NCBI GenBank assembly: GCA_964561085.1
Contig: CAZLNP010000003.1
Span: 72,310 to 136,309, forward strand
DNA: 64,000 nucleotides
Origin: an uncultured Candidatus Saccharibacteria bacterium
Lineage (GTDB): Bacteria; Patescibacteriota; Doudnabacteria; UBA920
Direction of reading: 5' to 3'
In this document: piece by piece, positions 3,532 through 53,623 of the stretch
Layout: the number at the start of each line of letters is the position of its first letter
Numbering within the stretch: position 1 is the first letter of the stretch
The notes under the pieces: model-generated
What the model saw: the letters and a program-made list of their open reading frames with translations, nothing else
Told to the model about the DNA's origin: nothing
Database searches by the model: none
Made by a program: the position numbers and the translations under genes

Positions 3532-4131
3532 TTAAGCTTTAAGGGGTTTTACAATATTTAAAAAATCACGGACATTTTTGGACAGACGGACATGGTATGT
3601 ATACTTGGAATTATATTTGGATTTCGGTTGAAAGTGATATATATTAGGATCGTATCCAAGCCATTTAATCATTTGGTAAACATCCGTTGCAAGATCTTTT
3701 ACTGTGTTAGTGAACATCACCATTGGATATCCACGATCAGTGTAAACTGAACCATCAGTTTCAATCAATCCCTTTAAGCAGGCTGTAATATATTCGTCTT
3801 TGATCCATATCCAATCAGGCACTTTTGCGTTCTGAATGTATTTGCTTCCTTGCCCTGCTTTCCACCCTAATATGGTTTCCCAGTAATTCGAATACGAAGA
3901 AATATCTATACAGTTACTAGGCCTCTTTATAATATCTATTTTGCTTTCCGGCAAAATATAATTGATAGCTGCTATTATCTCAGTAATTAAAAAAGTATAT
4001 TTAAGATCACATGAAACTCTGAATCGAACACATCTACTATTTGGGTTTGATAGATTTCCATCACCCAATCCAATCCCAACAAGATAAGCTAAAACTTCTC
4101 TGTTCCACCTAATTGAATTAGTGTAATACAT
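3532..4131 (-). CDS. LAGLIDADG-family homing endonuclease (double-motif)
   Basis: Two LAGLIDADG motifs: LVGIGLGDGNLS and KGLIETDGSV; start placed at internal Met (MYYTNS) because the longer ORF would overlap tRNA-Leu. Confidence 0.8.
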   Translation of the reverse strand: MYYTNSIRWNREVLAYLVGIGLGDGNLSNPNSRCVRFRVSCDLKYTFLITEIIAAINYILPESKIDIIKRPSNCIDISSYSNYWETILGWKAGQGSKYIQNAKVPDWIWIKDEYITACLKGLIETDGSVYTDRGYPMVMFTNTVKDLATDVYQMIKWLGYDPNIYHFQPKSKYNSKYTYHVRLSKNVRDFLNIVKPLKA

Positions 4132-4137
4132 TTTATT

Positions 4138-4223
4138 TGGTGCCGGTGGTGGGACTCGAACCCACACGCCCAGAGGGCAAAGGTTTTTGAAACCTTCTTG
4201 TATACCAATTTCAACACACCGGC
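4138..4223 (-). tRNA. tRNA-Leu (anticodon CAA), type II long variable arm, CCA encoded
   Basis: Reverse complement folds as cloverleaf: acceptor GCCGGTG/CACCGGC, anticodon loop TTCAAAA, long variable arm, T-loop GGTTCGAGTCC, 3' ACCA. Confidence 0.8.
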
Positions 4224-4257
4224 AAGTTACTAAAATCCCTATTATTTTAGCAATAAA

Positions 4258-4803
4258 TCAGGTCAGCGTAAAGAACAAGGTGTAAGCGAAACAATAGGTC
4301 AAATAGCCCACAACGGAGCCAATAATTGCACCTACAAGGATGTCTGTTGGCCAGTGCCATCCCATTACAACACGCCCAACACCCGCGATAACAGAAGTCG
4401 CTATTAAGATTGATCCTAGAATTGGGTGGAACAGAAACACCACTGACGCAACCGAAAAATATGCAGCAGTATGACGCGATGGAAAAGAGTCGTGGTGATT
4501 ATCCCGGAAAGAAAAAAACTTAGTTTCTTCTGGCTTCGTATTATATCTTTGATATGGCCTAGCCCTCTTTACGAACTGATTAATGAAAGATACAACAAGT
4601 CCACGAGAAAAAACGAAAGATAGAATCGACAAGCCGATAAGCGCTTGCCAATTTTCGTGTAAATCAGGATTTACAAAAATCCAAACTGCCACTAAACCAA
4701 AAATAACGAAAGCGTAGTTCCCCCAAAAAATCCAAAAATATTTATACACCATGCTTTCATTGATTCTCTTTTGAAAATGTTTATACTCTTTTTCAGCGAT
4801 CAT
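4258..4803 (-). CDS. PAP2-family phosphatase (membrane)
   Basis: KxxxxxxRP (KRARPY), PSRH, and HWPTD motifs in a multi-TM protein. Confidence 0.7.
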   Translation of the reverse strand: MIAEKEYKHFQKRINESMVYKYFWIFWGNYAFVIFGLVAVWIFVNPDLHENWQALIGLSILSFVFSRGLVVSFINQFVKRARPYQRYNTKPEETKFFSFRDNHHDSFPSRHTAAYFSVASVVFLFHPILGSILIATSVIAGVGRVVMGWHWPTDILVGAIIGSVVGYLTYCFAYTLFFTLT

Positions 4804-4807
4804 AATT

Positions 4808-5617
4808 TTAGTTTCTTATTAAATAAATAATGACTATCACTGCTGCCAATGCAAATCTGTACCAAGCAAAAATAGCAAAAGACTTGTTTGCAATGTAACG
4901 TAGCATATATTTAATAGCAAGGAATCCAAAAATCATTGCTGAAAAGAATCCAACAATCACTGGGCCTAAATTATCTATTTGTGCAATGTCTGGAATTTTT
5001 AATACACCAGCTCCAAGAATTATCGGCACAGACATTAAAAAGCTAAACTTTGCCGCGGCTTCACGAGTAAGCCCTTGGGCTAGCCCGGCTGTTATTGTTG
5101 CACCGCTTCTTGAAATACCAGGAACGATTGCTGCTGCTTGAGCAAAACCAATTAGAATCGCATTACCCCAAGATGTGTCGTTTAAAGATTTAAGCTTATG
5201 ACCATATTTATCTGCAAGTAATAGAATAAACCCTACTACCGCTAAAGTTACAGCAATTAGAATTGGATTACGAAAAGCTGTTTCGACTTGATTTTCGAAA
5301 ATCTTGCCGATTACCGCCGCTGGGATTGTCGCAGCAATAATTAGCCATGAAAGTTTTTGATAAATATTTTCTTTGAAGTTTCTAGTACTCGGGAGCAGGG
5401 AGTGAAAAAAACCACGCGCTAAATTCCATATATCTTTTCTGAAATATGCGACCACCGCAATTAAGGTACCCCAGTGAAGCGCAATATCGAAAGCTAAACC
5501 TTGATCTGGCCAGTTAAAAAGATATGGCGTAATAATTAAATGAGCTGAAGAAGAGATTGGCAAAAATTCACCAAGCCCTTGAACTGCGCCTAATATAAAT
5601 GCTTGAAATAATTCCAT
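4808..5617 (-). CDS. uppP: Undecaprenyl-diphosphatase UppP/BacA
   Basis: 269 aa; N-terminal GxxQGLGEFLPISSSAHL signature of BacA/UppP. Confidence 0.85.
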   Translation of the reverse strand: MELFQAFILGAVQGLGEFLPISSSAHLIITPYLFNWPDQGLAFDIALHWGTLIAVVAYFRKDIWNLARGFFHSLLPSTRNFKENIYQKLSWLIIAATIPAAVIGKIFENQVETAFRNPILIAVTLAVVGFILLLADKYGHKLKSLNDTSWGNAILIGFAQAAAIVPGISRSGATITAGLAQGLTREAAAKFSFLMSVPIILGAGVLKIPDIAQIDNLGPVIVGFFSAMIFGFLAIKYMLRYIANKSFAIFAWYRFALAAVIVIIYLIRN

Positions 5618-41287: not shown

Positions 41288-42985
41288 ATGAAATTACAAG
41301 AATCTAATGAAGAAGTGCCAAGTGCAACTACTTCTGGTGCAAGATTCGAGAATCTAGGTATCGCTCCGAAATTACTTGAAATACTTTCACAACATAAATT
41401 TGTTACGCCCACACCAATTCAAGAAAAATCTATCCCAGCTGCCCTAACAGGTGCTGACCTTATGGGCATCGCCCAAACAGGAACTGGTAAAACTCTTGCT
41501 TTTGGTATTCCTATGATCCAACGCCTAGCCCAAAGTAGCGGCAAGGGTACTGGACTCGTAGTGTTACCTACTCGCGAACTCGCGTTGCAGGTTAACGAAA
41601 CTCTTAAGAAGATTGGAACTCCAATCGGCTTAAAAACTGCTATCTTAATTGGCGGCGAAGCGATCGGCCGTCAACACCAAGCGTTGAAACGCAACCCACA
41701 TATCATCATTGCGACTCCTGGTCGTCTGATTGATCACTTAGACAAAAAGACTGTTGATCTATCTAAGACTCTTGTCTTAGTTCTAGATGAAGCAGATCGT
41801 ATGTTAGACATGGGATTTGCGCCACAGATCACAAAGATCCTGGAAAAAGTTCCAAAAGGACGTCAGACTCTTTTGTTCTCTGCGACAATGCCTACCGCAA
41901 TTGTTAAAATTGCGAACACCTACATGAGTACCCCACTTCGCATTGAAGTAGCTCCTGCAGGAAGTGCTGTTAAATCTGTTACTCAAGAAATTTATTTCCT
42001 TGAACGCGGACAAAAACTTCCATTGCTTAGCACAATTCTTAAGCAATACAATGGTAGCATCTTAGTTTTCTCTCGTACCAAATTTGGTGCTAAGAAAATT
42101 GCACGAGACATTCGCGCTATGGGTGTTACAGCTACAGAAATTCACTCTAACCGATCTTTGAACCAACGCTTAGACGCGTTAAAAGGTTTTAAACTTGGAA
42201 ACTTCCGAGTTCTTGTAGCAACAGACATTGCCGCTCGTGGTATTGATGTTACTGGTATTCAATTAGTTATTAACTATGACTTGCCAGACCAAGCTGAAGA
42301 TTACGTTCACCGTATTGGTCGCACAGGTCGTGCATCTATGACTGGCCACGCCATTTCTTTTGCAACTCATGACCAACGTCGCGATGTAAACATGATTGAA
42401 CGTTTAATTAAAACTCAATTACCAGTAGCAAAACTTCCTGAGACTTTACCGCACGTAGCTAGATCTACTGAACCAGAACGTGATGATCGCGGTCGTGGTG
42501 GTCGTAGCTCTGGCGGACGCCCTTCATCTAGTCGCCCATCTACTGGTCGTTCAAGTGGTGGTCGCCCAGCTTATGGTAGTCGACCAAGCGGTCGTGATAG
42601 TCGCCCATCTTTTGGAGACAGAACAAGCCGCACTACTACTATGACACCTTCATCAAGTCGTCCTGCATCTGCTGGTCGTGGGTATGAAGGTAGCAAGCCA
42701 CGTCCTGGCGCTGCACCAAGAACTAGTGGATACGTACGCGGAGCAAGTGCTTCCGCACCACGTACTAGTGGTTATGTAAGAGGTGCAACTAGTGGTAGAC
42801 CAACAACTGGTCGACCAGATGCGCGCGGCGGCAGACCGTCCTCTACAGGCGGAGCTTCTAAAGGACGCAGAAAATGGTCTGATTACGAACGTGGTCGCAA
42901 ACCAGCACCAGCATCTTTGAAGAAAATCTCTCCAAATGCTAGCGGCTTCTACATTACTCGCAAAGTAAATCCAGAAGACGAATAG
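41288..42985 (+). CDS. DEAD-box ATP-dependent RNA helicase with ~170-aa Arg/Gly/Ser-rich C-terminal tail
   Basis: Q-motif, AQTGTGKT, DEAD, SAT, HRIGRTGR; tail RGRGGRSSGGRPSSSRPS... with a PRTSGYVRGA x2 repeat. Confidence 0.9.
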   Translation: MKLQESNEEVPSATTSGARFENLGIAPKLLEILSQHKFVTPTPIQEKSIPAALTGADLMGIAQTGTGKTLAFGIPMIQRLAQSSGKGTGLVVLPTRELALQVNETLKKIGTPIGLKTAILIGGEAIGRQHQALKRNPHIIIATPGRLIDHLDKKTVDLSKTLVLVLDEADRMLDMGFAPQITKILEKVPKGRQTLLFSATMPTAIVKIANTYMSTPLRIEVAPAGSAVKSVTQEIYFLERGQKLPLLSTILKQYNGSILVFSRTKFGAKKIARDIRAMGVTATEIHSNRSLNQRLDALKGFKLGNFRVLVATDIAARGIDVTGIQLVINYDLPDQAEDYVHRIGRTGRASMTGHAISFATHDQRRDVNMIERLIKTQLPVAKLPETLPHVARSTEPERDDRGRGGRSSGGRPSSSRPSTGRSSGGRPAYGSRPSGRDSRPSFGDRTSRTTTMTPSSSRPASAGRGYEGSKPRPGAAPRTSGYVRGASASAPRTSGYVRGATSGRPTTGRPDARGGRPSSTGGASKGRRKWSDYERGRKPAPASLKKISPNASGFYITRKVNPEDE

Positions 42986-43668: not shown

Positions 43669-44304
43669 TTAGGCGTTTTTTATTTTATCTATCATTTCTG
43701 CATAGGCAGAATTGAGTCGTTCCATTAATTCGTCGTCCTTACTAAATTCAGAGGCTTTATCAGTAACTCTGGTTGCAAGCTCAAACGGTAAGCCAATTTC
43801 CACCAACAGCGGATGGTAGCTCTCGATGCTTAATTCATTAGGATTAGAATAGGAGTTTTGGATTAAAGCATAAAATTTATCAATTAACTCACGACTCTCT
43901 CCATTTTGGAGTTCAGCAAATTTTACGTCTGGCAGAAACTCATTTATTTTAAAATTTGCAATGTCATTTAAGTCTTGCAGTATTTTTACTGCAGTAAGTG
44001 AAACCCAATCATCATCCCCCGTGTGCATGTTGTCATACGAAAATAGTGATGAAAACTTTTCAATGTATATCTGCGATTGGATTTCATCACAAGCCAAATG
44101 AGAGTGCCAACCCTTAGCGAAATCACTTATTGTGTTAATGTCCCATTGATCAAAATCCGAGGGGTGAGTTAGATTTCTCGGAGTTTTTGTGATGTATCGC
44201 GTATCAGGATATACCGCCCCAGCAATATAACTTTGCAGGTTTGAAGGGCTATAGTAGTCCTGAAGATCAATCGCAAATTTAATGTGTGTCCCTTGTAATG
44301 CCAT
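43669..44304 (-). CDS. Hypothetical protein (possible zinc-dependent PLC/P1-nuclease-like fold)
   Basis: N-terminal GTHIKFA...YPDTRY...HSHLACDE His/Asp pattern; weak. Confidence 0.35.
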   Translation of the reverse strand: MALQGTHIKFAIDLQDYYSPSNLQSYIAGAVYPDTRYITKTPRNLTHPSDFDQWDINTISDFAKGWHSHLACDEIQSQIYIEKFSSLFSYDNMHTGDDDWVSLTAVKILQDLNDIANFKINEFLPDVKFAELQNGESRELIDKFYALIQNSYSNPNELSIESYHPLLVEIGLPFELATRVTDKASEFSKDDELMERLNSAYAEMIDKIKNA

Positions 44305-44339
44305 GTAGTAATTATAACAAAATTGAGCAAAGTTGTAGA

Positions 44340-44368
44340 TTGACTATTCCTAGGTTTTTAGCTACAAT
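44340..44368 (+). promoter_or_regulatory. Near-consensus sigma70-type promoter
   Basis: TTGACT - 17 nt - TACAAT. Confidence 0.55.
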
Positions 44369-44374
44369 ACCAAC

Positions 44375-44450
44375 GGATTCAGTAATAGTGAATCTAGCCT
44401 GACACAGCAGGCCAGTTAGTTTTAATCGCTGTGGAAGCGATTTTTTATTT
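44375..44450 (+). ncRNA. Candidate small RNA (three hairpins, last an intrinsic terminator)
   Basis: Downstream of promoter: GATTCA-gtaatag-TGAATC; GCCTG-acacag-CAGGC; AATCGC-tgtggaa-GCGATT + T-run; no ORF. Confidence 0.35.
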
Positions 44451-44506
44451 TAGTACTTTAACAAAACTTTATCTAAATTTTATAAGCTTTAAGGCATAGT
44501 TAGAGT

Positions 44507-44998
44507 ATGCCTAAAGTTAACTGTAAAATTTGCAATTCTCCATTTTATGCCAAACCAAGACATTTAAAAATTGGTTGTGGAAAGTATTGTTCAAAAAAAT
44601 GCCAAAATACTTCTCAAAGAACTGGGTTTTGGACAGAATGCAATAACTGCGGCAAGTCAATATGGAAAACTCCCAGAGATGTTAGAGATTCAAAAAGTGG
44701 AAAATTCTTTTGCAGTAAAAGTTGCCAGACAGTTTGGAGAAACAAGCATTATAGCGAAACCAAACATCCTATGTGGAAAAATGGCATTAACACATACCGT
44801 AACATATTACTTAGAAGTAAGGTTCCTGTGATGTGTTTAAAATGTAAATTGAAAGATAAAAGAATTCTAATTGTTCACCATCTTGACAAAAATAGAACAA
44901 ATAATTCTTTGGGCAATTTAGTTTGGTTATGTGCAAATTGTCATATGTTAATTCATGCTGATAATAAAGAAATGAAAAGTTTTTTAAAGAATATATAA
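44507..44998 (+). CDS. HNH homing-type endonuclease with N-terminal paired zinc ribbons
   Basis: C-terminal HHLDKNRTNN...NLVWLCANCHMLIH HNH motif; duplicated CxxC...YAKP..GKYCSKxCQ N-terminal modules. Confidence 0.8.
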   Translation: MPKVNCKICNSPFYAKPRHLKIGCGKYCSKKCQNTSQRTGFWTECNNCGKSIWKTPRDVRDSKSGKFFCSKSCQTVWRNKHYSETKHPMWKNGINTYRNILLRSKVPVMCLKCKLKDKRILIVHHLDKNRTNNSLGNLVWLCANCHMLIHADNKEMKSFLKNI

Positions 44999-45005
44999 AT
45001 ATTAT

Positions 45006-45080
45006 GGTGGCTGTGGTGTAGTGGTAACACAATTCTCTGTGGCAGAATTATCGGGGGTTCGATTCCCCTCAGTCACCCCA
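45006..45080 (+). tRNA. tRNA-His (anticodon GTG) with encoded G-1 and CCA
   Basis: G-1 + GTGGCTG acceptor pairing with CAGTCAC, discriminator C73; anticodon stem ATTCT/AGAAT, loop CTGTGGC. Confidence 0.85.
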
Positions 45081-45231
45081 TTAAAAATAACGCTTGTTTA
45101 AAGCGTTATTTTTTGTTACCCTTAACAGGAATTGAACTGTGACCAAAAACGTGAAGTATAATTTATAAAATAATAAAGGTTCAATTTAAAATATATTTGT
45201 ATATAATTTTTAATAATTAAAACTTTCCACT

Positions 45232-45801
45232 ATGCAAAACGAATTGGAAGCTAAATTTCTATCAATTGATAAGGAAGAAGTTAGAGTCAAGCTAACTAGT
45301 GCTGGGTACACTCTCTCGACGCCTGAGTATACCATGCGAAGAAAAACTTTTGACTTCTCAAAAGTAGATCCTGGAAAAAATAAATGGGGTCGTGTTAGAC
45401 AAGAATCTGACAAAACAACAATGACTATCAAAGAAGTCAGAGGTGAAGGTGTTAATGATACTTTTGAAGTAGAGCTAGTTGTTAATGATTTTGATATTGC
45501 AGCCAACTTCTTCGAAGCATGTAATATCCACGCAAAAGCCTTTCAAGAAAATATGCGTGAGGTATGGAAAAAAGATAATGTCGAGGTAACCATTGATACC
45601 TGGCCAGGATTAAAGCCATTTATAGAAATTGAAGGTCCTACCGAAGAAAGCCTAAAAGAAGCTAGTGCGGAATTGGAGTTTGATTATGCAATAGCATCAT
45701 TTGGAAGCATCGATATGATTTATGAAAAAGAACTTGGCATCCCTGCTTCAGAAATAATTAAATTGCCAGAAATTACATTCGCGTCAGTACCAACTAAATA
45801 A
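45232..45801 (+). CDS. CYTH-domain protein (CyaB-like triphosphate tunnel metalloenzyme)
   Basis: N-terminal ELEAKF (ExExK) signature; 189 aa beta-barrel-like alternating pattern. Confidence 0.7.
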   Translation: MQNELEAKFLSIDKEEVRVKLTSAGYTLSTPEYTMRRKTFDFSKVDPGKNKWGRVRQESDKTTMTIKEVRGEGVNDTFEVELVVNDFDIAANFFEACNIHAKAFQENMREVWKKDNVEVTIDTWPGLKPFIEIEGPTEESLKEASAELEFDYAIASFGSIDMIYEKELGIPASEIIKLPEITFASVPTK

Positions 45802-45813
45802 TTACCAAAATGA

Positions 45814-45842
45814 AAAGCCGTGGAATTTCTTCTACGGCTTTT
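45814..45842. terminator. Bidirectional terminator between CYTH gene and radical SAM operon
   Basis: AAAGCCGT-12 nt loop-ACGGCTTT with flanking A/T runs. Confidence 0.55.
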
Positions 45843-46845
45843 ATCTTTTAAGTTGAACTAAAGTTGGTTTGATCGGCGGGTATGTGTACTCACCAGGTTC
45901 TTCCATGCACCACCCTTCAGATTGCCCAGGGGTCCTGCAGTTAAAATTACAGCGAGGTACAACCGTCAAGCGAAGCGATGTCTTGGCAAGCAAGTTATCG
46001 ATTTCGATTTCTCCGATCTTGCTTTTTATAGCAGCCTTGAATTGCGCATCGTCGTCATCAAATTCGGGGACTGAGAATCCTATGTCCCTTCTTAGATAGC
46101 AAAAATACATTTCAAGTTTCGGATCAACACGTGCGTAATCACCAAACTTTTCTTCGCAGACAAGTTTGTGATCACAGGAATTACAAGGCTCAACAGATCT
46201 ATCCAACTTATCTCCCAGCTTCACTTCAACCATGCCACCGCCAGAAAGATGAAACCGTAAGCGTTTTCTTCCTAAGTCTTTCTTCACCCGTTGAATGAGA
46301 GAAGTCTTAGAGAGCACTTCCGATTTGATCACTGGTCGCCAGTCCTGATATTGAGACTGATAATTTGAGTCGCTACTTGGAGTCCAAAGCAAAGTGAATA
46401 GTTTCAATCTGCTCTTATAGGTATTTAAGAGAGATAACTGCTCGGGAATGTCTGAGGTAAAACCTTTTAACAATACTCGATTGAAATCAACCTTGATACC
46501 TAAATCCAAAGCCTCGGTAACTCCTGAGATAAACTTTTGGTAATCTCCATAACCACCTGAAATCTCTTTAAAGATTAGTGGGTCTGTAGAATGCCAACTC
46601 GTTCGAATCAGGGATAACCCAGCCGTCTGTAGCTTTTTCGCATAAGCTTTAAGCAATTGCCCGTTTGTGGTCATCGAGGTTATAAAACCCCGATCGACAA
46701 GGGCTTTCACAACATCGTCAATATGATAATTGCCGTCTCGCCATAAAAGTGGTTCTAACGCACCGATCTCGACATTAGGGTTACCCCCAATACTCAACCA
46801 GTTATCAGCCACTTTCATTATATTTTCAAACGAAAGTGGTTTCAT
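45841..46845 (-). CDS. MoaA-like radical SAM protein, apparently circularly permuted (Cys-motif strand at C-terminus)
   Basis: N-terminal part aligns to MoaA from the GGEPLL element onward (GALEPLL, TNGQLL, SWHS); CX2C...C auxiliary-cluster-like region CNSCDHKLVC...RVDPKLEMYFC; C-terminal LRLTVVPRCNFNCRTPGQSEGWCMEEPGE resembles the MoaA N-terminal [21 protein letters not shown]. Confidence 0.6.
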   Translation of the reverse strand: MKPLSFENIMKVADNWLSIGGNPNVEIGALEPLLWRDGNYHIDDVVKALVDRGFITSMTTNGQLLKAYAKKLQTAGLSLIRTSWHSTDPLIFKEISGGYGDYQKFISGVTEALDLGIKVDFNRVLLKGFTSDIPEQLSLLNTYKSRLKLFTLLWTPSSDSNYQSQYQDWRPVIKSEVLSKTSLIQRVKKDLGRKRLRFHLSGGGMVEVKLGDKLDRSVEPCNSCDHKLVCEEKFGDYARVDPKLEMYFCYLRRDIGFSVPEFDDDDAQFKAAIKSKIGEIEIDNLLAKTSLRLTVVPRCNFNCRTPGQSEGWCMEEPGEYTYPPIKPTLVQLKR

Positions 46846-47423
46846 GCGTTTACCCTCCCAGCAATATGCTTTTTGATCAACTCAACAGTTTCTAATGCCG
46901 TCACAACACCCGTGTCAATGTAGATCAAATTAAACGAAAGAAAAACTTCGTTAACTTGATCCAAAAACGGACTATTATTTTCGAGGTTGGCATCAGGAAT
47001 GTTTCGTTTACGTGCTACGATTCGCTTGTCTCGAGTTTCTGAATCGCAGTTTAGATGAAACGCATAATCAGGTAGCAGTAGATGAGTATCAGAATGAATC
47101 AACTTCACTCTTTCATCTAATACATAATGATATGCTGCCGTTGTTGCTACGTAACGATCGGCTACAACTGGTCCTTGTTTCAAAAGATCCGTAATATGCT
47201 GGGTGTCATACTGCACAGCCATCATATAAAAACAATACCTTTCCAAAGGGCTTGCTCTCAGATCAATCTCTTTCCGTAATTCCGCGAACGCACCCGATGG
47301 TGATTTATAATATTGAAATCCCTGCTCAGCCAACAATAAAGCGGCTGTAGTTTTTCCAACACCATCTACGCCATCGAGACTTATAAATACATTTTTTTGC
47401 ATAAAGCCTCCCAGCTCATTCAA
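46842..47423 (-). CDS. tmk: Thymidylate kinase-like P-loop nucleotide kinase
   Basis: ISLDGVDGVGKTT P-loop and VVADRYVATTAAYHY (DRY motif); ATGA overlap with downstream radical SAM gene. Confidence 0.65.
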   Translation of the reverse strand: MNELGGFMQKNVFISLDGVDGVGKTTAALLLAEQGFQYYKSPSGAFAELRKEIDLRASPLERYCFYMMAVQYDTQHITDLLKQGPVVADRYVATTAAYHYVLDERVKLIHSDTHLLLPDYAFHLNCDSETRDKRIVARKRNIPDANLENNSPFLDQVNEVFLSFNLIYIDTGVVTALETVELIKKHIAGRVNA

Positions 47424-47904
47424 TGGATAAAATCAGAAGTTCTCTTTTGGAGTTCTTCAATCTTACCGTAACCTCATCATCTTCATGCTTACCGATTAAA
47501 GCACTTGATATTGGGGTGCCCAATGAAATAACCGTTATAGTTTTTCCATCATCTTCGTGTTCAGTTCCTCCGCCCGCTGGCAAAAGGAAATAATAAAGCC
47601 TTTCTCCTGAATTACAATCTTCCAGCTTGATTAACGCATAGAGTGAGCCATGCTCAATCTTAGGTGGATTGTTTCTCAAGACTTCCAAGGTTCCAAGTTG
47701 TTGCCGAAGTTCTGACAAATTCTTTTCAAAAGCACCGGCTAAATACTGGGCTTCTTCTTTGAACGTGTCATATCGGGACTGCATGGCTCCTTTATGAAAC
47801 CTAGATTCCTTTTCAGCTGTTTTGCGACCGGTTTCGGCTGTTTCAATTGCTGAACGAGTGGTTGCGATTATTTCTTCCAAAATCCGCAATTTTAGTTCTT
47901 GCAT
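47416..47904 (-). CDS. greA: GreA/GreB-family transcript cleavage factor
   Basis: N-terminal coiled-coil + C-terminal FKBP-like VISLGTPISSALIGKHEDDEVTV; 8-nt overlap with tmk-like gene. Confidence 0.7.
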   Translation of the reverse strand: MQELKLRILEEIIATTRSAIETAETGRKTAEKESRFHKGAMQSRYDTFKEEAQYLAGAFEKNLSELRQQLGTLEVLRNNPPKIEHGSLYALIKLEDCNSGERLYYFLLPAGGGTEHEDDGKTITVISLGTPISSALIGKHEDDEVTVRLKNSKRELLILSIE

Positions 47905-48116
47905 AAATTCTCCTTATATATGTAAAAGTAAGCCACTTAAATGTATAAATGACTTACAATTATGGGATATTTTTGTCGAATTGTCAACCGAATACAGAAT
48001 CTGTATTTTACAGTATCATTTCAGGAAAGAACCCATCCCTCTTCCCATATACCTCCCCTTGTAACTTAAATTGACAATGATATAAATACTTCTGTTTCTC
48101 TCGCCACAGTTGCCAC

Positions 48117-48173
48117 GTCTTCCACTATGCGACCCTACAAACAACATCTGTTAATCGCAGGTGTTTTTTGTTA
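48117..48173 (+). repeat. Conserved leader/terminator element copy E1
   Basis: TCCACTATGCGACCC...CATCTG-ttaatcg-CAGGTG + T6, 11 nt before ridA ATG. Confidence 0.6.
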
Positions 48174-48183
48174 AACTTATTTT

Positions 48184-48603
48184 ATGAACGACACTCACAT
48201 CAACTCTTCCAGAGCACCTAAACCCTTGGGCTCATATCCTCATGCAAGGCGCGTTGGCAATCTTTTATTCCTATCTGGTATCGGCCCTCGTGAAATTGAT
48301 TCAAAAAATATTCCTGGAGTACAGCTTAATGACGCTGGAGATATAATATCTTATGATATTGAAACTCAATGTCGATCTGTATTTAAAAATGTTAAGTTAG
48401 TCCTCGAAGATGCAGGATCTTCGTGGGACCAAATAATTGATGTCACTGTGTTTCTAACAAACATGGAAGATGATTTTGAAGTTTACAATCAAGTCTATAA
48501 TGAGTACTTTTCAAAGAATCAGCCATGTCGGACAACTATCGAAGTTAATAAATTACCAACGCCAATAGCTATTGAATTAAAGGTCATTGCAACAGTAAAC
48601 TAA
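48184..48603 (+). CDS. ridA: RidA/YjgF-family reactive-intermediate deaminase
   Basis: 139 aa; RVGNLLFLSGIGP...TTIEV...ELKVIA signature. Confidence 0.85.
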   Translation: MNDTHINSSRAPKPLGSYPHARRVGNLLFLSGIGPREIDSKNIPGVQLNDAGDIISYDIETQCRSVFKNVKLVLEDAGSSWDQIIDVTVFLTNMEDDFEVYNQVYNEYFSKNQPCRTTIEVNKLPTPIAIELKVIATVN

Positions 48604-48621
48604 TAGCACGGTGGTGCAGAC

Positions 48622-48678
48622 ATCCTCCACTATGCGACCCCAGCAAAAAGCATCTCGTAATCCGAGGTGTTTTTTGTT
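48622..48678 (+). repeat. Conserved leader/terminator element copy E2
   Basis: TCCACTATGCGACCC...CATCTCG-taatc-CGAGGTG + T6; near-identical to E1. Confidence 0.6.
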
Positions 48679-48689
48679 ATGCTAATTGT

Positions 48690-49154
48690 ATGATATTAAA
48701 ATTTTCTAACTTAGATACGCTAAGAAATCAGAAAACTGTCTATACAGCCGGCTCTTTTGATTTATTCCATCATGGCCACGTTAAGTATCTAAGAGCGATT
48801 AGAGAAAAATATCCGAACCATAAAGTAGTTCTTGGTTTACTTCCTGATAAAAGAATTGCCGGCAAAAAAGGGAGCTCACGACCAATTATAAAAGAAAAAG
48901 ATAGAATTGCGGTGATCGATTCAATAAAGTACGTGGACTATGTTTTTATCTGCCCTATTTACAAACATGCGGAAGATGCGACATTTATAATTTTAGAGAA
49001 GCTTAAACCAAAATATGTGGTGTTCCCTCAAAAGAAGTATCTTAAACTAAAACATGAATTTGAAAAGACGGGCTCAAAAATAGTCATTTTGAATAGGCAG
49101 TTAAACTCCGAGTCAACCTCTAACATAATTAAGAGGATTCAAAATATCAAATAG
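48690..49154 (+). CDS. Cytidylyltransferase-family nucleotidyltransferase (TagD/RfaE-domain-II-like)
   Basis: GSFDLFHHGHVKYL = G-x-FD-x-x-H-x-GH nucleotidyltransferase motif; 154 aa. Confidence 0.65.
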   Translation: MILKFSNLDTLRNQKTVYTAGSFDLFHHGHVKYLRAIREKYPNHKVVLGLLPDKRIAGKKGSSRPIIKEKDRIAVIDSIKYVDYVFICPIYKHAEDATFIILEKLKPKYVVFPQKKYLKLKHEFEKTGSKIVILNRQLNSESTSNIIKRIQNIK

Positions 49155-49179
49155 CGATGACCTTGCCTTAGTCCTCACT

Positions 49180-49232
49180 TCTTCCGCAATGTGACCCCCA
49201 AAAAACACTAGCATCCGCTAGTGTTTTTTGCT
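49180..49232 (+). repeat. Conserved leader/terminator element copy E3 (diverged)
   Basis: TTCCGCAATGTGACCCCC...CACTAGC-atcc-GCTAGTG + T6. Confidence 0.55.
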
Positions 49233-49260
49233 ACGCTTTAAGTAACTAAAGAAAAACTTA

Positions 49261-49410
49261 TGAAAATCAAAGTTGAACACCACACTTTTCCTGGAGCGCT
49301 TTGGCTAATTGGCTGGCTGTTTACAATTGGCTTTTTAGACCTTCACTTTTGGAAAGGTGTATTGGCTATCATTATCTGGCCATACTACCTAGGCATTTTC
49401 TTCCGCTAAA
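49261..49410 (+). CDS. Small hydrophobic protein (49 aa, two predicted TM; not in ORF track)
   Basis: ATG 49261, MKIKVEHHTFPGALWLIGWLFTIGFLDLHFWKGVLAIIIWPYYLGIFFR, stop 49408-49410. Confidence 0.3.
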
Positions 49411-50245
49411 TTTTTGGTAAAGCTAAAATCCAGAACAAAATTAGACCTAGAATGGCATTAATTGCTGGGAACCACCAGTAAATGGTTTTAATTTTGTGTA
49501 GGTTGATGTAAGTGTAGATCGTTGCGATTGGATACAACAGCACTAACCAAACTAAAATACTGGCGTTGAAGTTTTGGATAACTAGCACGCTAGATATAAT
49601 CCATAATACAAAACAAACTACCAGAGAAAGCTTGTGTCCTAGCACCACGGCTGTAGTAGACAGATTAGCTTTGGCATCACTTTCAATATCTGGGACTGCG
49701 GAATAGATGTGCATGCTAGCAGTCCACGCCCAAGCAGCTAACATTGCCCACACCGGTGGAACATCACCAGTTATAAAACTGTAAGCTAGGAATCCAATCA
49801 CTGCATAATGAACATTGGAAGCCGCGTCGATAACAGGCTTAGCTTTAAAGCGAAACGGATACGCGCTATAACATCCAGCTAAAGCAAGGAACAAAATCCA
49901 TAGCCACATTGTAGTTGAATTTGGCGTAAAGAATGCCAACACAATACCAAGAACAAGCGATGCGACAACCCATATAGTTAGGGCTCTGCGTTCTAACATT
50001 CTTAGACGATGTTCTTTATCGTCTTTTTTAGCGTTGAACTGATCTGTATCATCGTCGAACAAATCATTGATGCCGTAAATATAGATGTTTGCAAAGAAAA
50101 TAAAATAGACTAAATAAACTAACAACAGCGGATTAATTAAGTCAGTTAAAGTTTGCACTCCAGCCACTGCCCCAACTAAAAATGTGCCAGCTGCATAAAG
50201 CCAAAACCGAGGTCTTGAAATTTTGATTAAAGTTTTAAGGTTCAT
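49406..50245 (-). CDS. UbiA-family prenyltransferase (lycopene elongase/cyclase-like, in carotenoid operon)
   Basis: 279 aa, ~8 TM; Asp-rich motif GINDLFDDDTDQFN (NDxxDxxxD). Confidence 0.55.
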   Translation of the reverse strand: MNLKTLIKISRPRFWLYAAGTFLVGAVAGVQTLTDLINPLLLVYLVYFIFFANIYIYGINDLFDDDTDQFNAKKDDKEHRLRMLERRALTIWVVASLVLGIVLAFFTPNSTTMWLWILFLALAGCYSAYPFRFKAKPVIDAASNVHYAVIGFLAYSFITGDVPPVWAMLAAWAWTASMHIYSAVPDIESDAKANLSTTAVVLGHKLSLVVCFVLWIISSVLVIQNFNASILVWLVLLYPIATIYTYINLHKIKTIYWWFPAINAILGLILFWILALPKI

Positions 50246-50254
50246 TTGTTTAGA

Positions 50255-51313
50255 TTATTTTTCTCGTACGGCTAAATAATTTATCAAGTCTTCCATTACT
50301 ACTAATTGATTTTTATCAAAAGGTAGTTTCTTAAGTAGAGTTAATACGTTCTTCTGTTGAGCTTGTAATTCCCTCTCAGCTAACTCAGGAATACGAGCCT
50401 CTTTCATTTTTGAAATTACAAAAGCTTGTTGAGACTTAGTCATCACATTGTGAGAATTAAACAGCGTAGAAATTTTCTTTGCGTCTGATTTACTAACTTT
50501 CTTAAGAAGTCGGAAGTATAGCCAAGTTTTTTTGCGCTCACGAATGTCACCGCCAACTGACTTTCCTGTTTTTACTGTATCGCCAAATACCCCTAAGTAG
50601 TCGTCACGGAGTTGAAATATAATTCCTAAAGATTTTGCCAACTGTTGAACTTTAACTTCCATGCTTTTGGTGTACTTCCCTGCTAGAATAAGTCCTGCTA
50701 AAATTGGCAGTCCAAACGTATATCGGCCAGTCTTTTGTTCATAAATCCTCAGGCAATCTTTTTCACTTGAAGCACTCATAGTACCAGTATTAAGATCATC
50801 CATTTGTCCGAGACCAAGCAAACCCATTTCTAAGCTAAACAGCTCCACTAGTTTTGCTAGCCCTTTGTTTGTTTTAACTTTTCCAAATTCACTCATGGCC
50901 ATAAAGTAAGCAAGGATTCCGACACAGCTTGCCATACCTTCTCCATAATGAACACTCTCGGCTTTACTAGGAAGCTTGCTTAAAGCGGTGTACTGGGCAT
51001 GAATTGTAGGTTTCCCGCGGCGCAAAAGATCACGATCCATAATATCATCATGGACTAAAATACCGGAATGCATTAGCTCTAAAGCCGCACCAATTTTAAT
51101 AGCATCAGATTGAGCCTGCTTCGATTTATTCCCAGTTGCCAATACTACTAAAAGTCCACGAATCATTTTTCCAGAGACTGTAAAATTTTCTAAACGATTT
51201 AAGGCGTCGTTTGACCAAGGATATTCAGACTTTGCATATTGCTTCTGAAGCCTTATAATCTCAGAGATTTCTTTCTGAATCAGACTTTTTTTTGATATAA
51301 AAAACTTGTTCAT
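50255..51313 (-). CDS. Polyprenyl diphosphate synthase (FPP/GGPP synthase type)
   Basis: First Asp-rich motif LVHDDIMDRD (DDxxD), second FQLRDDYLGVFGD. Confidence 0.8.
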   Translation of the reverse strand: MNKFFISKKSLIQKEISEIIRLQKQYAKSEYPWSNDALNRLENFTVSGKMIRGLLVVLATGNKSKQAQSDAIKIGAALELMHSGILVHDDIMDRDLLRRGKPTIHAQYTALSKLPSKAESVHYGEGMASCVGILAYFMAMSEFGKVKTNKGLAKLVELFSLEMGLLGLGQMDDLNTGTMSASSEKDCLRIYEQKTGRYTFGLPILAGLILAGKYTKSMEVKVQQLAKSLGIIFQLRDDYLGVFGDTVKTGKSVGGDIRERKKTWLYFRLLKKVSKSDAKKISTLFNSHNVMTKSQQAFVISKMKEARIPELAERELQAQQKNVLTLLKKLPFDKNQLVVMEDLINYLAVREK

Positions 51314-52155
51314 GTAAATATAAGTTGCTTAATGGCTGTTGTCGCTATCTGTACCTTTGATGGTATTACTTTTCTTTCAAAAATAACTTGTGGGTTTTTA
51401 GAAATTTCTTCAATCGTATCGTCAAACAAATTTAGTGCTATCTTAATGGGTACCAAATAACGTGATGGAATAAAATGGAAACCGCTCTTAGCTTGCTCCC
51501 GCCACTGTTCGTAAATTTTAATTTGAGCATGAATGAATTCATTAAATTGTTCTGGCTTAGCAGTAGCCTCTGCTTTACTGACTTCAAGTAACCCAAACTT
51601 TCTAAACTCTTCTTCTGGCAAATAAATTCTCCCCAAAGAAATGTCATCTGCAACATCACGAATCATATTCATGTACTGAAAAGCTTTTCCTAAAGCCTGG
51701 GATGCTGGAAAACTAGCTTCATCAAGTTTCATAATCTTTGCCATCATCAAACCAATTACTTCAGCCGACCCATGAATGTAATGTTCAGTTTCCTCCAAAG
51801 TTGCGTAAGTAGTTTTAACTAGATCATCTTCCATTGAACCAAAAAAAGATTCAATCCATTTTTGATCAAAATTATATTCTTTTTGAAGCTTCACAAAGCT
51901 CTGGACCACTTCCGTATTTTTTTCTGAACTAAGTGATTGAGTCGCTTCCCCGTTTAGTGTGGCATAATATTCGGTTTTCAGTTGAAAATATTCATCTTTC
52001 TGAGGAGGGACGCAATCAACGAAGTCATCAAAAACTCTAACGAATGCGTATAAATCAAATACAGCCTTCTTTTCTGCAGAAGGAAAAAATAGTGACGCAG
52101 CGAAGAACGTTGTGCTGCCATTTTTAAAAATTTCGTAACTAACTGATTTGCTCAT
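51310..52155 (-). CDS. Phytoene/dehydrosqualene synthase family (CrtB/CrtM-like)
   Basis: YAFVRVFDDFVD and MIRDVADD Asp-rich motifs of squalene/phytoene synthases; 4-nt overlap with downstream gene. Confidence 0.75.
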   Translation of the reverse strand: MSKSVSYEIFKNGSTTFFAASLFFPSAEKKAVFDLYAFVRVFDDFVDCVPPQKDEYFQLKTEYYATLNGEATQSLSSEKNTEVVQSFVKLQKEYNFDQKWIESFFGSMEDDLVKTTYATLEETEHYIHGSAEVIGLMMAKIMKLDEASFPASQALGKAFQYMNMIRDVADDISLGRIYLPEEEFRKFGLLEVSKAEATAKPEQFNEFIHAQIKIYEQWREQAKSGFHFIPSRYLVPIKIALNLFDDTIEEISKNPQVIFERKVIPSKVQIATTAIKQLIFT

Positions 52156-53623
52156 TATCTTTTGTAATATTATCGCGAGTTAGTTGGCCCGAGATTAAAG
52201 TCATGGGCACACCAATTCCTGGTTGAGTAAATTGACCTGAATAGTAAAGGTTTTTAACTTTTTTGCTTTTCATTCGAGGGCGCATCATGGCTGTTTGCCA
52301 TAAAGTGTGACTCAGCCCTAAAGCGGTTCCCTTAAAAGCATTATAATCCTTTGCGAAATCTTCTCCGGTGAAAATTCTTTTTACTTCAATGTTCGGTGTA
52401 ATACTTTCCCCTGTCTCTTCCTCAAAGTGAGAAATAATTTTTTGTGCAAACTCCTCGCGGAACTCTGGAGTCTCTGGTAAGTCACTTGCTATTGGTACTA
52501 GGACAAATAAGTTTTCTTTGCCTTCTGGTGCTGTTGTAGGATCGGTCTGCGATGGCGCACATACATAGTAAGACGGTTCATCAGGCCAAGAAGGCTTGTC
52601 GAAAATAGCATTAAAATGCTTGGTCCAGTCATTGCTTAGAACTAGATTATGATGGCTCAAAGAATTTAACTTTTTATTTAGCCCCAAATAGATAATAAAC
52701 GCAGAAGGTGCCACCGTTCGGTTATTCCAATATCTGTTCGAGTAACTTTGAGAGGACTTTGGTAACAAGCTTGTTTCAATATGATGATAGTCCCCGTTCC
52801 CGACTACTACATCTGCTTCGAACTCATCTGTCTCAGTACTTACTGAAGTGGCAACGCCATTAACGACATTAATTTTTGTGACTGGAGTATTGAATATAAA
52901 TTTTGCGCCATAGCTTTCAGCGAGTTTTTGCATTGCCACGGCCACCGCGTTAAATCCACCTTCCGGATACCATACTCCCAAATTAAAGTCAGCGTGATTA
53001 ATTACTGAATAAAGCGCTGGGGTGTTGCTTGGAGCACCACCAAGAAAAACCATACTGTACTGCAAAATTTTTCGCAAGCGTTCACTCTTAAAAAATCTTT
53101 TTGTAAAAGCGTCTAGGTTTTCAAACACATGAAGCTTGCGGCCCTCTGTTAACATGCGCTTATTAAAGAAGTCAAAAATTGATGTAAAATTTTTGTACAA
53201 GAATTGCTTCATCGAGACATCGTACTGATATTTAGCTTGCTCTAAATACTCTACTAATTTCTCTCCAGCTCCAGGCTCAAGAGACTCAAATAACGCAATA
53301 TTCTTCTGCAAATCTGAGCTAATGTCTAATTTATCTCCAGGACCAAAAAATATTCTGTAAGATGGATCTAAACGAATTAATTTGTACAAGTCTTCAGGCT
53401 TTTTCCCGAAGTTAGCAAAGTAAGTTTCAAAGGCATCCGGCATTAAATACCACGATGGACCCATGTCAAACGAAAAGCCGGCCTCTCGCCAGATGCGAGC
53501 ACGACCGCCTACCATTTCATTTTTTTCTATAATTGTCACTTTATGGCCATCTCTAGCCAAAAGCGCTGCCGCAGCCAAACCACCAAACCCGGCGCCTATA
53601 ACTACGATCTTTTTGCTTTCCAT
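52139..53623 (-). CDS. Phytoene desaturase family (CrtI/CrtN-like FAD oxidoreductase)
   Basis: N-terminal dinucleotide fold VVIGAGFGGLAAAALLARDGHKVTIIEKN; 494 aa; 17-nt overlap with synthase gene. Confidence 0.75.
   Translation of the reverse strand: MESKKIVVIGAGFGGLAAAALLARDGHKVTIIEKNEMVGGRARIWREAGFSFDMGPSWYLMPDAFETYFANFGKKPEDLYKLIRLDPSYRIFFGPGDKLDISSDLQKNIALFESLEPGAGEKLVEYLEQAKYQYDVSMKQFLYKNFTSIFDFFNKRMLTEGRKLHVFENLDAFTKRFFKSERLRKILQYSMVFLGGAPSNTPALYSVINHADFNLGVWYPEGGFNAVAVAMQKLAESYGAKFIFNTPVTKINVVNGVATSVSTETDEFEADVVVGNGDYHHIETSLLPKSSQSYSNRYWNNRTVAPSAFIIYLGLNKKLNSLSHHNLVLSNDWTKHFNAIFDKPSWPDEPSYYVCAPSQTDPTTAPEGKENLFVLVPIASDLPETPEFREEFAQKIISHFEEETGESITPNIEVKRIFTGEDFAKDYNAFKGTALGLSHTLWQTAMMRPRMKSKKVKNLYYSGQFTQPGIGVPMTLISGQLTRDNITKDNEQIS

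Follow-up and report, generated by a model that had tools for sequence, protein, structure and literature searches.

The 64,000-nucleotide stretch of contig CAZLNP010000003.1 analyzed here (the window) contains a module of four genes centered on a radical S-adenosylmethionine (SAM) enzyme, and this enzyme is a circular permutant of the MoaA-like radical SAM fold. On the minus strand, greL (47416..47904), encoding a Gre-fold paralog of 162 aa, is followed by tmkL (46842..47402), encoding a P-loop nucleotide kinase of the Tmk/CMPK2 superfamily, and by the gene for the permuted enzyme (45841..46845), a twitch-type protein of 334 aa. A gene for a CYTH/triphosphate-tunnel protein of 189 aa lies on the plus strand (45232..45801). 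These four genes had been proposed in a preliminary description of this DNA, and all of them are real, being open reading frames (ORFs) whose products exceed the gathering scores of their Pfam families. The genes are linked in about 25 of 30 independent loci, which exceeds chance. Tentatively, we interpret the module as a viperin-like factory for a modified nucleotide that would be tied to the secondary channel of RNA polymerase (RNAP), an interpretation whose chemistry and biological role are drawn from the relatives and the genomic context of the four proteins.

Circular permutation of the radical SAM enzyme

Three features place the enzyme in the radical SAM superfamily: a match to Radical_SAM PF04055 (45 bits against a gathering score of 29.5), a three-Cys motif with an aromatic residue before the last Cys, and a partial TIM barrel. 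MoaA is its closest relative in both sequence and structure, and the next structural neighbors include BlsE, AbmM and viperin. The earlier assignment as a 'MoaA/NifB-type radical SAM' protein holds for the superfamily and for the nearest relative, but the N-terminal CxxxCxxC (CX3CX2C) motif is missing, as follows from a Pfam match that begins at model position 27, and the permutation had been overlooked.

Against the MoaA models TIGR02666, TIGR02668 and NF001199 the enzyme scored 58.7, 86.1 and 68 bits, all below the respective cut-offs of 284, 325 and 231 bits, and the MoaA models aligned to it only from about model position 40 on. The N-terminus of the enzyme is equivalent to MoaA residue ~48. 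Its cluster motif, LRLTVxPxCNFNC-x9-C, is carried by the C-terminus (residues 291-313, encoded at 45907..45975 on the minus strand; LRLTVVPRCNFNCRTPGQSEGWC). Comparison of a profile of the family with Staphylococcus aureus MoaA returned two segments in swapped order, with positions 292-307 aligned to MoaA residues 15-30 (LRLSVTDRCNFRC) and positions 4-155 aligned to residues 48-197. Transfer of the C-terminal ~50 residues to the N-terminal side let the MoaA models align from position 10 and raised the scores from 86 to 93 bits and from 59 to 71 bits. A profile built from rearranged family members gave a single contiguous alignment to MoaA residues 16-202. In this alignment the third Cys follows a 7-residue insertion, hence the CX3CX9C spacing with the aromatic residue before the last Cys. 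All of 66 sequences have C299 and C313 and at least 90% have C303, and the C-terminal cluster motif is retained in members from Acidobacteria, Myxococcota and Gemmatimonadota.

An AlphaFold2 (AF2) model of the enzyme (pLDDT 90.6, pTM 0.90) shows the elements in the order alpha1-beta2 through beta6, a twitch-like region, linker helices, strand 290-293 and the cluster loop. As judged from the sequence alignment and the confidence of the model rather than from measured geometry, the C-terminal strand would take the place of beta1 in the barrel. The searchable literature yielded no account of a radical SAM enzyme with circular permutation, nor of any radical SAM enzyme paired with a Gre factor, and we are aware of neither a natural circular permutation of this barrel nor a radical SAM-Gre pairing. 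If confirmed, the enzyme would give the radical SAM superfamily its first described case of natural circular permutation and would demonstrate that the C-terminus can supply the cluster-binding beta1 loop, which is relevant to enzyme engineering. The arrangement also matters for annotation: motif-based detection of radical SAM enzymes expects an N-terminal CX3CX2C, and these proteins are named 'MoaA'.

A second motif, C-x2-C-x5-C-x18-C, spans residues 221-249 (46099..46185, minus strand) and is a putative auxiliary [4Fe-4S] motif. In the same 66 sequences C221, C230 and C249 are invariant and C224 is found in at least 90%; the four Cys residues probably bind a fully ligated auxiliary cluster. 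The enzyme thus differs from S. aureus MoaA (1TV7/1TV8/2FB3) in several respects. In MoaA the CX3CX2C cluster motif is N-terminal, while in the enzyme beta1 and the CX3CX9C cluster loop are C-terminal. The auxiliary cluster of MoaA is bound by CX2CX13C, three Cys that leave an open iron site, in contrast to the four Cys of the enzyme. MoaA ends in a Gly-Gly tail, which is absent here, the chain ending instead in the radical SAM cluster loop. The GTP-binding residues of S. aureus MoaA, which from MoaA-GTP structures we take to include R17, R71, N124 and R192, are partly changed in hidden Markov model (HMM) alignments: R71 corresponds to E26 (invariant in the family), N124 to R81, D128 to H85, and GGE to GALE. 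Equivalents of R17 (R292), S126, N165 and R192 (as K148) are retained. The suggestion that the enzyme acts on GTP as MoaA does cannot be transferred to a permuted protein in which several GTP-binding residues are replaced. The enzyme is derived from MoaA but is no MoaA.

We also examined the wider clade. A full profile search of 1.84 billion cluster representatives yielded 52 proteins at E <=1e-30. These include an un-permuted sister family, in which a CX3CX9C 'WCH' motif stands at the N-terminus (e.g. ELRLFINDVCNFRCSFPKTQKFWCH) together with the same auxiliary motif as in the permuted family, and a second permuted subfamily, in which a CX3CX2C of canonical spacing stands at the C-terminus (e.g. 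RAVINNYCNFQCSWCHENG). The CX3CX9C loop is therefore common to permuted and un-permuted enzymes, and the second permuted subfamily retains canonical spacing. By comparison, the twitch enzymes BlsE, AbmM, BtrN and DesII, whose substrates are nucleosides or sugars, reach only 22-25 bits against the enzyme, and none of them is permuted or paired with a Gre-fold protein.

Conservation of the module and its partner proteins

ORFs were called in 27 GTDB loci and 3 metagenome loci (numbered L001 and so on), these were searched with the window proteins, and all flanking proteins were clustered. The recurrent families were those of the module only: the radical SAM enzyme in 30, tmkL in 26, greL in 25 and CYTH in 23 of 31 loci, and in most of them the order is greL-tmkL-enzyme and then convergent CYTH. 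The radical SAM-kinase-CYTH linkage pointed out in the preliminary description is conserved across many genomes. The kinase and radical SAM genes do overlap by 4 nt (ATGA, 46845-46842), and related loci show the same overlap. The 8-nt overlap claimed for greL and tmkL is doubtful, since it needs a TTG start (47423). The likely start of tmkL is the in-frame ATG at 47402, which is preceded by GGGAGG at 47412-47407, yields a protein of 186 aa, equal in length to the closest homologs, and leaves a 13-nt spacer to greL.

In a database of 5.8 billion clusters the families are alike in size, with 165 members for the enzyme, 147 for greL and 119 for tmkL. Mean pairwise identity over the same 16 loci is 63% for CYTH, the most conserved protein, 59% for the enzyme, 55% for the kinase and 34% for greL. 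Hosts belong mainly to the candidate phyla radiation (CPR): Paceibacterota, Peribacteria, Doudnabacteria, Kerfeldbacteria, Adlerbacteria and metagenome-assembled genomes (MAGs) labeled Saccharibacteria. A few hosts outside the CPR are found in Acidobacteria, Myxococcota and Gemmatimonadota. The distribution is patchy, and the flanks are not syntenic between genomes. The module is self-contained and horizontally mobile, and it moves between phyla. As for island borders, only 5 of about 28 loci have a tRNA gene at a distance of up to about 700 nt from the module, and the tRNAs differ. A phage origin was considered and rejected: relatives of the enzyme are absent from IMG/VR and INPHARED, apart from partial moaA-like matches in INPHARED, and the PHROG families gave no match to greL, the enzyme or CYTH. 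In the MAG of the closest relative (CAZBOT01) the radical SAM gene is split over two contigs (L028 5150-6496 and L020 1-561), and only the last ~70 nt of the kinase gene precede it; this could be decay of the module or a chimeric co-assembly.

greL matches the C-terminal GreA_GreB domain of Pfam (36.8 bits, gathering score 26.9), GreA_GreB_N remains unmatched, and the score against the GreA equivalog TIGR01462 is 39 bits, below the cut-off of 139. An AF2 model (pLDDT 90.4) consists of helices 2-36 and 44-78, which form a coiled-coil hairpin, a tip loop at 37-43 and a C-terminal beta domain, so that in the model greL has the full Gre architecture. Foldseek placed the Gfh1-RNAP complex (3aoi_X) first, followed by GreA, GreB, the N-terminus of HelD and Rnk, with a probability of 1.00 for Gfh1, GreA and GreB. 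The protein shares architecture, length and the YDxxKEE sequence after the tip with the Gre family of secondary-channel factors (GreA/GreB, Gfh1 and Rnk), to which DksA belongs by function.

The tip is what sets greL apart. Residues 37-55 (47740..47796, minus strand) read HKGAMQSRYDTFKEEAQYL, and in 55 sequences G39, M41, S43, R44, Y45, D46, T47, K49, E50, E51, Q53, Y54 and L55 are invariant, although the mean column identity is only 46%. The catalytic D41 and E44 of Escherichia coli GreA align to K38 and M41 of greL in a manual alignment on the shared YDxxKEE, and the tip loop (HKGAMQS) has no conserved acidic residue. With the acidic pair replaced, greL is predicted to be unable to stimulate transcript cleavage. 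GreA and GreB have a conserved acidic pair at the tip (D41/E44 in E. coli GreA), whereas greL has the tip G-x-M-x-S-R-Y-D-T and is always encoded beside a permuted enzyme. Binding of greL to RNAP is predicted from its Gre fold, from its best structural match, Gfh1 located in the RNAP secondary channel, and from the invariant, non-acidic tip. The earlier label 'greA-like' is correct as to the Gre fold, but greL is a dedicated paralog in which the acidic catalytic residues are missing, and no other partner accompanies the enzyme as constantly; it is not a bystander GreA.

This constancy extends beyond the CPR and beyond the complete module. In the loci of Acidobacteria and Myxococcota greL comes after the enzyme gene, and in that of Gemmatimonadota it is found upstream of tmkL in divergent orientation. 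In L043 and L044 a greL-family protein (86 bits, tip APGRMQTRYDS) overlaps the gene of the second permuted subfamily by 4 nt, and pairs of this subfamily with Gre-like proteins occur in L040 (354-3201), L043 (915-2566) and L044 (4513-6164). Another Gre-like type (MYYF...GQEMGAS..ETxHDNF) is found after CYTH in L003, where greL is absent, and directly after the subfamily-2 enzyme in L040. A second greL paralog with the tip APGAMQSHSDT is encoded in L001 (7141-7620), convergent downstream of the enzyme in the usual place of CYTH.

The kinase belongs to the thymidylate kinase superfamily (Thymidylate_kin PF02223, 48.4 bits against a gathering score of 27) and has the P-loop DGVDGVGKTT, the DRY motif and a YKSPSG stretch; the first two of these had been noted before. 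Against the dTMP kinase equivalog TIGR00041 it scores 52.2 bits (cut-off 83.25), and against solved Tmk structures only 23 bits. Its homologs form a closed set of 119, of which 118 score at least 168 bits and the remaining one matches partially with 89 bits; canonical Tmk proteins are absent from this list, which comes from a word-seeded search that may miss distant Tmk proteins. In PADLOC the best matches are PDC-M51B (82 bits) and VakA, the viperin-associated kinase (66.5 bits), both above its score against the Tmk model. tmkL is a separate clade and not a canonical Tmk. PDC-M51 is presented as an untested two-gene candidate (FAM_01858>>FAM_00353) embedded in BREX, DISARM or type I restriction-modification loci (bioRxiv 10.1101/2024.01.29.577857).

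The CYTH protein matches PF01928 with 27.5 bits (gathering score 23.2), and its closest solved chain is the Pyrococcus furiosus CYTH protein 1yem. It shares the domain, the ExExK start and the basic and acidic tunnel residues with CYTH/triphosphate tunnel enzymes such as CyaB and the inorganic and thiamine triphosphatases. It differs from CyaB in scoring below the equivalog cut-off (TIGR00318, 33 bits against 58), and the Lys of its ExExK start (E4-L-E6-A-K8) is replaced by Thr in most homologs. CYTH lies beside the radical SAM gene in 23 of the 31 loci in three arrangements, which are convergent, downstream on the same strand (L013, L023) and upstream (L029), and this points to a functional linkage rather than to inherited synteny. 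Its absence from the versions outside the CPR marks it as an accessory part.

The source annotations, 'molybdenum cofactor biosynthesis enzyme MoaA', 'thymidylate kinase' and 'GreA/GreB family', would make these ordinary adjacent housekeeping genes for GreA, dTMP kinase and a MoaA that serves the molybdenum cofactor, and the Pfam assignments agree with them at the level of superfamilies. We consider this highly improbable. Equivalog cut-offs are missed widely (86 bits against 325, 52 against 83 and 39 against 139), the enzyme is permuted with changed MoaA substrate-binding residues, and greL lacks the catalytic D/E pair. The families have only ~120-165 members among 5.8 billion clusters, and they co-occur. 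A MoaA would be expected in the company of moaC/B/D/E or of molybdoenzymes, whereas no such gene and no other molybdopterin gene was recognized among the ORFs of the 64-kb window (partly judged from N-terminal sequences), and none recurs in the flanks of the 30 loci, where no further family recurs. The doubt about a canonical MoaA role that had been raised from the window was well founded. Ordinary MoaA, Tmk and GreA were rejected because of the equivalog cut-offs, the permutation, the active-site changes and the missing acidic tip.

A candidate pathway for a modified nucleotide

In MoaA and viperin the 5'-deoxyadenosyl radical abstracts a hydrogen from a sugar, H3' in MoaA and H4' in viperin. 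MoaA acts on GTP, BlsE and AbmM act on nucleoside derivatives, and viperin acts on CTP. The products of viperins are 3'-deoxy-3',4'-didehydro nucleoside triphosphates (NTPs) that terminate chains. We know of no Gre-fold partner of viperins. The pairing of viperin/pVip with VakA is similar to the module in that a MoaA-related radical SAM enzyme is encoded beside a kinase of the Tmk/CMPK2 superfamily, and in that both are patchy and associated with defense islands. The enzymes themselves are distinct. Viperin has no auxiliary-cluster motif and is un-permuted, in contrast to the module enzyme, which scores 17 bits against the viperin model NF038283 (cut-off 180) and 25 bits against pVip models. 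CMPK2-type kinases have been reported as partners of viperins, some of which carry fused COG1437/CYTH-type or cyclase domains (bioRxiv 10.1101/2023.09.13.557418); a Gre-fold partner is not described in that paper, while the module has a dedicated one.

Outside the CPR the module lies among defense genes. In L033 it adjoins RAMP, Cas10-like and Card1-like genes, and in L030 it is located between a GmrSD-type restriction gene and a DnaB-like helicase gene. In L026/L027 an integrase-like gene and a relaxase-like gene, both identified by reading the sequences only, are nearby. A PADLOC scan of 128 proteins flanking the CPR loci found scattered type II methyltransferases, Cas1, a reverse transcriptase, a type I specificity subunit and others, and as these hits stand against no baseline rate they are only suggestive of a conflict role. 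The un-permuted sisters have similar company: they adjoin a HEPN protein in L037 and a Csa3-like CARF protein in L038, and in L042 (4660-7751) one is located between the gene of a type IIG restriction-modification enzyme, accompanied by toxin-antitoxin genes, and HD and PLD genes.

The enzymatic partners that recur in the clade all act on nucleotides or nucleotide-linked sugars. Besides tmkL, the partners of relatives include PfkB kinase, DegT aminotransferase, NUDIX, NTP_transferase and HD phosphohydrolase. In L035 (2248-4132) the gene of an un-permuted sister overlaps a PfkB kinase gene. Neighbors of the second permuted subfamily, including those in L039 and L045, are DegT aminotransferase, NUDIX, NTP_transferase, AIRS and inositol-phosphatase genes, surroundings that look like an aminosugar or aminocyclitol-nucleotide pathway. 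Taken with the nearest relatives (MoaA, BlsE, AbmM and viperin) and the viperin precedent, these partners make a modified-nucleotide pathway the most economical explanation. The retained equivalents of MoaA R17 and R192 in the enzyme, and the P-loop, DRY motif and YKSPSG stretch of the kinase, also speak for a nucleotide substrate. The parallel to viperin partners drawn in the preliminary description is borne out by the VakA match, the published precedent and the non-CPR defense islands, while the antiviral role and the nucleotide chemistry that it implied continue to rest on context.

From these observations we infer the following scheme. tmkL would phosphorylate a nucleoside monophosphate or an analog and thereby feed a pool of di- or triphosphates. 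The enzyme would cleave SAM at its C-terminal CX3CX9C cluster, and the resulting 5'-deoxyadenosyl radical would take a sugar hydrogen from the nucleotide, with the fully Cys-ligated auxiliary cluster serving in electron transfer. CYTH may hydrolyze or cyclize the triphosphate end of the substrate or the product. greL would occupy the secondary channel of RNAP, the entry route of NTPs, where it could protect the host polymerase against the product or, alternatively, use its invariant S-R-Y-D tip to keep the product in place at the active site. The biological role is most likely a viperin-like conflict function, antiviral or antagonistic, to which the defense genes nearby, the patchy distribution and the non-syntenic flanks point.

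Several observations weigh against this scheme. The replacement of several MoaA GTP-binding residues means that the substrate need not be a nucleotide, and a set of four conserved auxiliary Cys is characteristic of twitch/SPASM enzymes, a group with many peptide-modifying members. The greL-enzyme pair of L043/L044 has neither the kinase nor CYTH nearby. Many CPR loci have housekeeping neighbors, e.g. ATP synthase and tRNA synthetases. Finally, in PADLOC greL, CYTH and the enzyme match no system model, except for a weak 25-bit pVip match of the enzyme.

Some of these points would be accommodated if greL were itself the substrate, its tip being modified post-translationally by a maturase-like enzyme to give an altered secondary-channel factor. 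The enzyme and greL are the most constant pair and include the bare 4-nt-overlapping pair of L043/L044, the tip of greL does not vary even though identity elsewhere in the protein falls to 34%, and the four auxiliary Cys are as in fully ligated twitch/SPASM clusters. We nevertheless regard this as rather improbable, since the other recurrent partners (tmkL, CYTH, PfkB, DegT, NUDIX, NTP_transferase and HD) are all nucleotide or nucleotide-sugar enzymes and MoaA, the closest relative by sequence and structure, acts on a nucleotide. In addition, no domain for recognition of ribosomally synthesized and post-translationally modified peptides (RiPPs) or for leader binding was detected in a Pfam domain search, and in L039 and L045 a permuted enzyme occurs without a Gre-like neighbor.

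Regulation of the host's own transcription is another explanation that we consider unlikely. Here an alarmone-like nucleotide would act together with greL on the cell's RNAP, as ppGpp does with DksA, under control of a sensor kinase in some lineages. The next commonest flank family after those of the module is a 7TM-HisKA sensor histidine kinase, which directly adjoins the module in 8 loci of several lineages (L003 at 3801-5366, L007, L008, L011, L021, L022, L024 and L025) and may regulate it; all other flank families are lineage-specific. A regulatory module is also in line with greL being a secondary-channel factor without cleavage residues, with the class IV adenylate cyclases among CYTH proteins (the cyaB match here being weak), and with the frequent housekeeping neighbors in the CPR. 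However, a rare, patchy distribution across phyla fits a core regulatory circuit poorly, the contexts outside the CPR are defense islands, and no riboswitch or known regulatory RNA is found upstream of the module, the only Rfam match being a tRNA-His. The probability left over goes to functions outside the four readings considered here, namely modified-nucleotide synthesis, modification of greL, regulation and housekeeping.

Returning to the modified-nucleotide pathway, we believe that its best-supported form is a variant of viperin-plus-kinase systems. A more specific idea, possible though doubtful, is that the permuted clade makes a small nucleotide-derived molecule for which a cleavage-dead Gre-fold protein in the secondary channel of RNAP is the receptor or antidote, the two forming an effector/immunity or second-messenger pair. 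Such a pair would differ from both viperin chain terminators and ppGpp-DksA, and the module would then be a new kind of system. If the modified-nucleotide pathway is correct, the module would represent a second, MoaA-derived lineage of nucleotide-analog systems beside viperin, with another cluster arrangement and probably another product. New antiviral or antibacterial nucleotide chemistries of this kind would be of direct pharmacological interest, and they would be coupled to the RNAP secondary channel in a new way, through immunity, co-inhibition or regulation. The module would also be among the few candidates for specialized conflict modules in CPR/Patescibacteria, a group with a poorly known defense repertoire.

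Signals and neighboring genes in the window

Between the convergent stop codons of the CYTH and radical SAM genes lies a bidirectional terminator-like hairpin (45813..45842) with a 13-pair stem and T-runs on both sides, in agreement with the shared terminator and tail-to-tail arrangement described earlier. A promoter-like site, TTGACA-17-CATAAT, is found upstream of greL (47959..47987, minus strand); it is a consensus match only, with 11 of 12 positions. No paralogs of the four module genes are present among the ~60 ORFs of the window, the rest of which resembles a small CPR/Patescibacteria genome with genes for many aminoacyl-tRNA synthetases, Tgt and PNPase.

The CYTH end of the module adjoins a tRNA-His(gtg) gene (45007-45080) and a gene for a phage- or homing-type HNH endonuclease with zinc-ribbon repeats (44507-44998). 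Local G+C is low on this side (0.354 at 44001-46000), and no att-like direct repeat of the 3' end of tRNA-His was found within 4.4 kb. Upstream of greL an element of ~70 nt occurs in three copies (48115-48187, 48620-48693 and 49177-49240). Its core, TCTTCCACTATGCGACCC, is found with 0, 1 and 3 mismatches in the three copies, against a chance expectation of 0.02 matches. A terminator-like hairpin and a T-run are present in all three, and copies one and two end at an ATG. The copies flank two small plus-strand genes, one RidA-like and one cytidylyltransferase-like, so that the region resembles a small cassette array. The start context of CYTH, TTTCCACTATGC, is similar to the core of this element.

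A carotenoid/squalene-type cluster, which is unusual in a CPR-like genome, is present at 49406-53623 and encodes a UbiA prenyltransferase, a polyprenyl synthetase, a phytoene/squalene synthase and a CrtI-like amine oxidase. A functional tie of the module to these genes (an HpnH-like idea) was rejected since they are not beside the module elsewhere. At the other end of the window, a LAGLIDADG-type endonuclease ORF (3532-4167) overlaps the position of a tRNA-Leu gene (4138-4223) on the same strand. The DEAD-box helicase encoded at 41288-42985 has a low-complexity C-terminal tail of ~180 residues rich in Arg, Ser, Gly and Pro.

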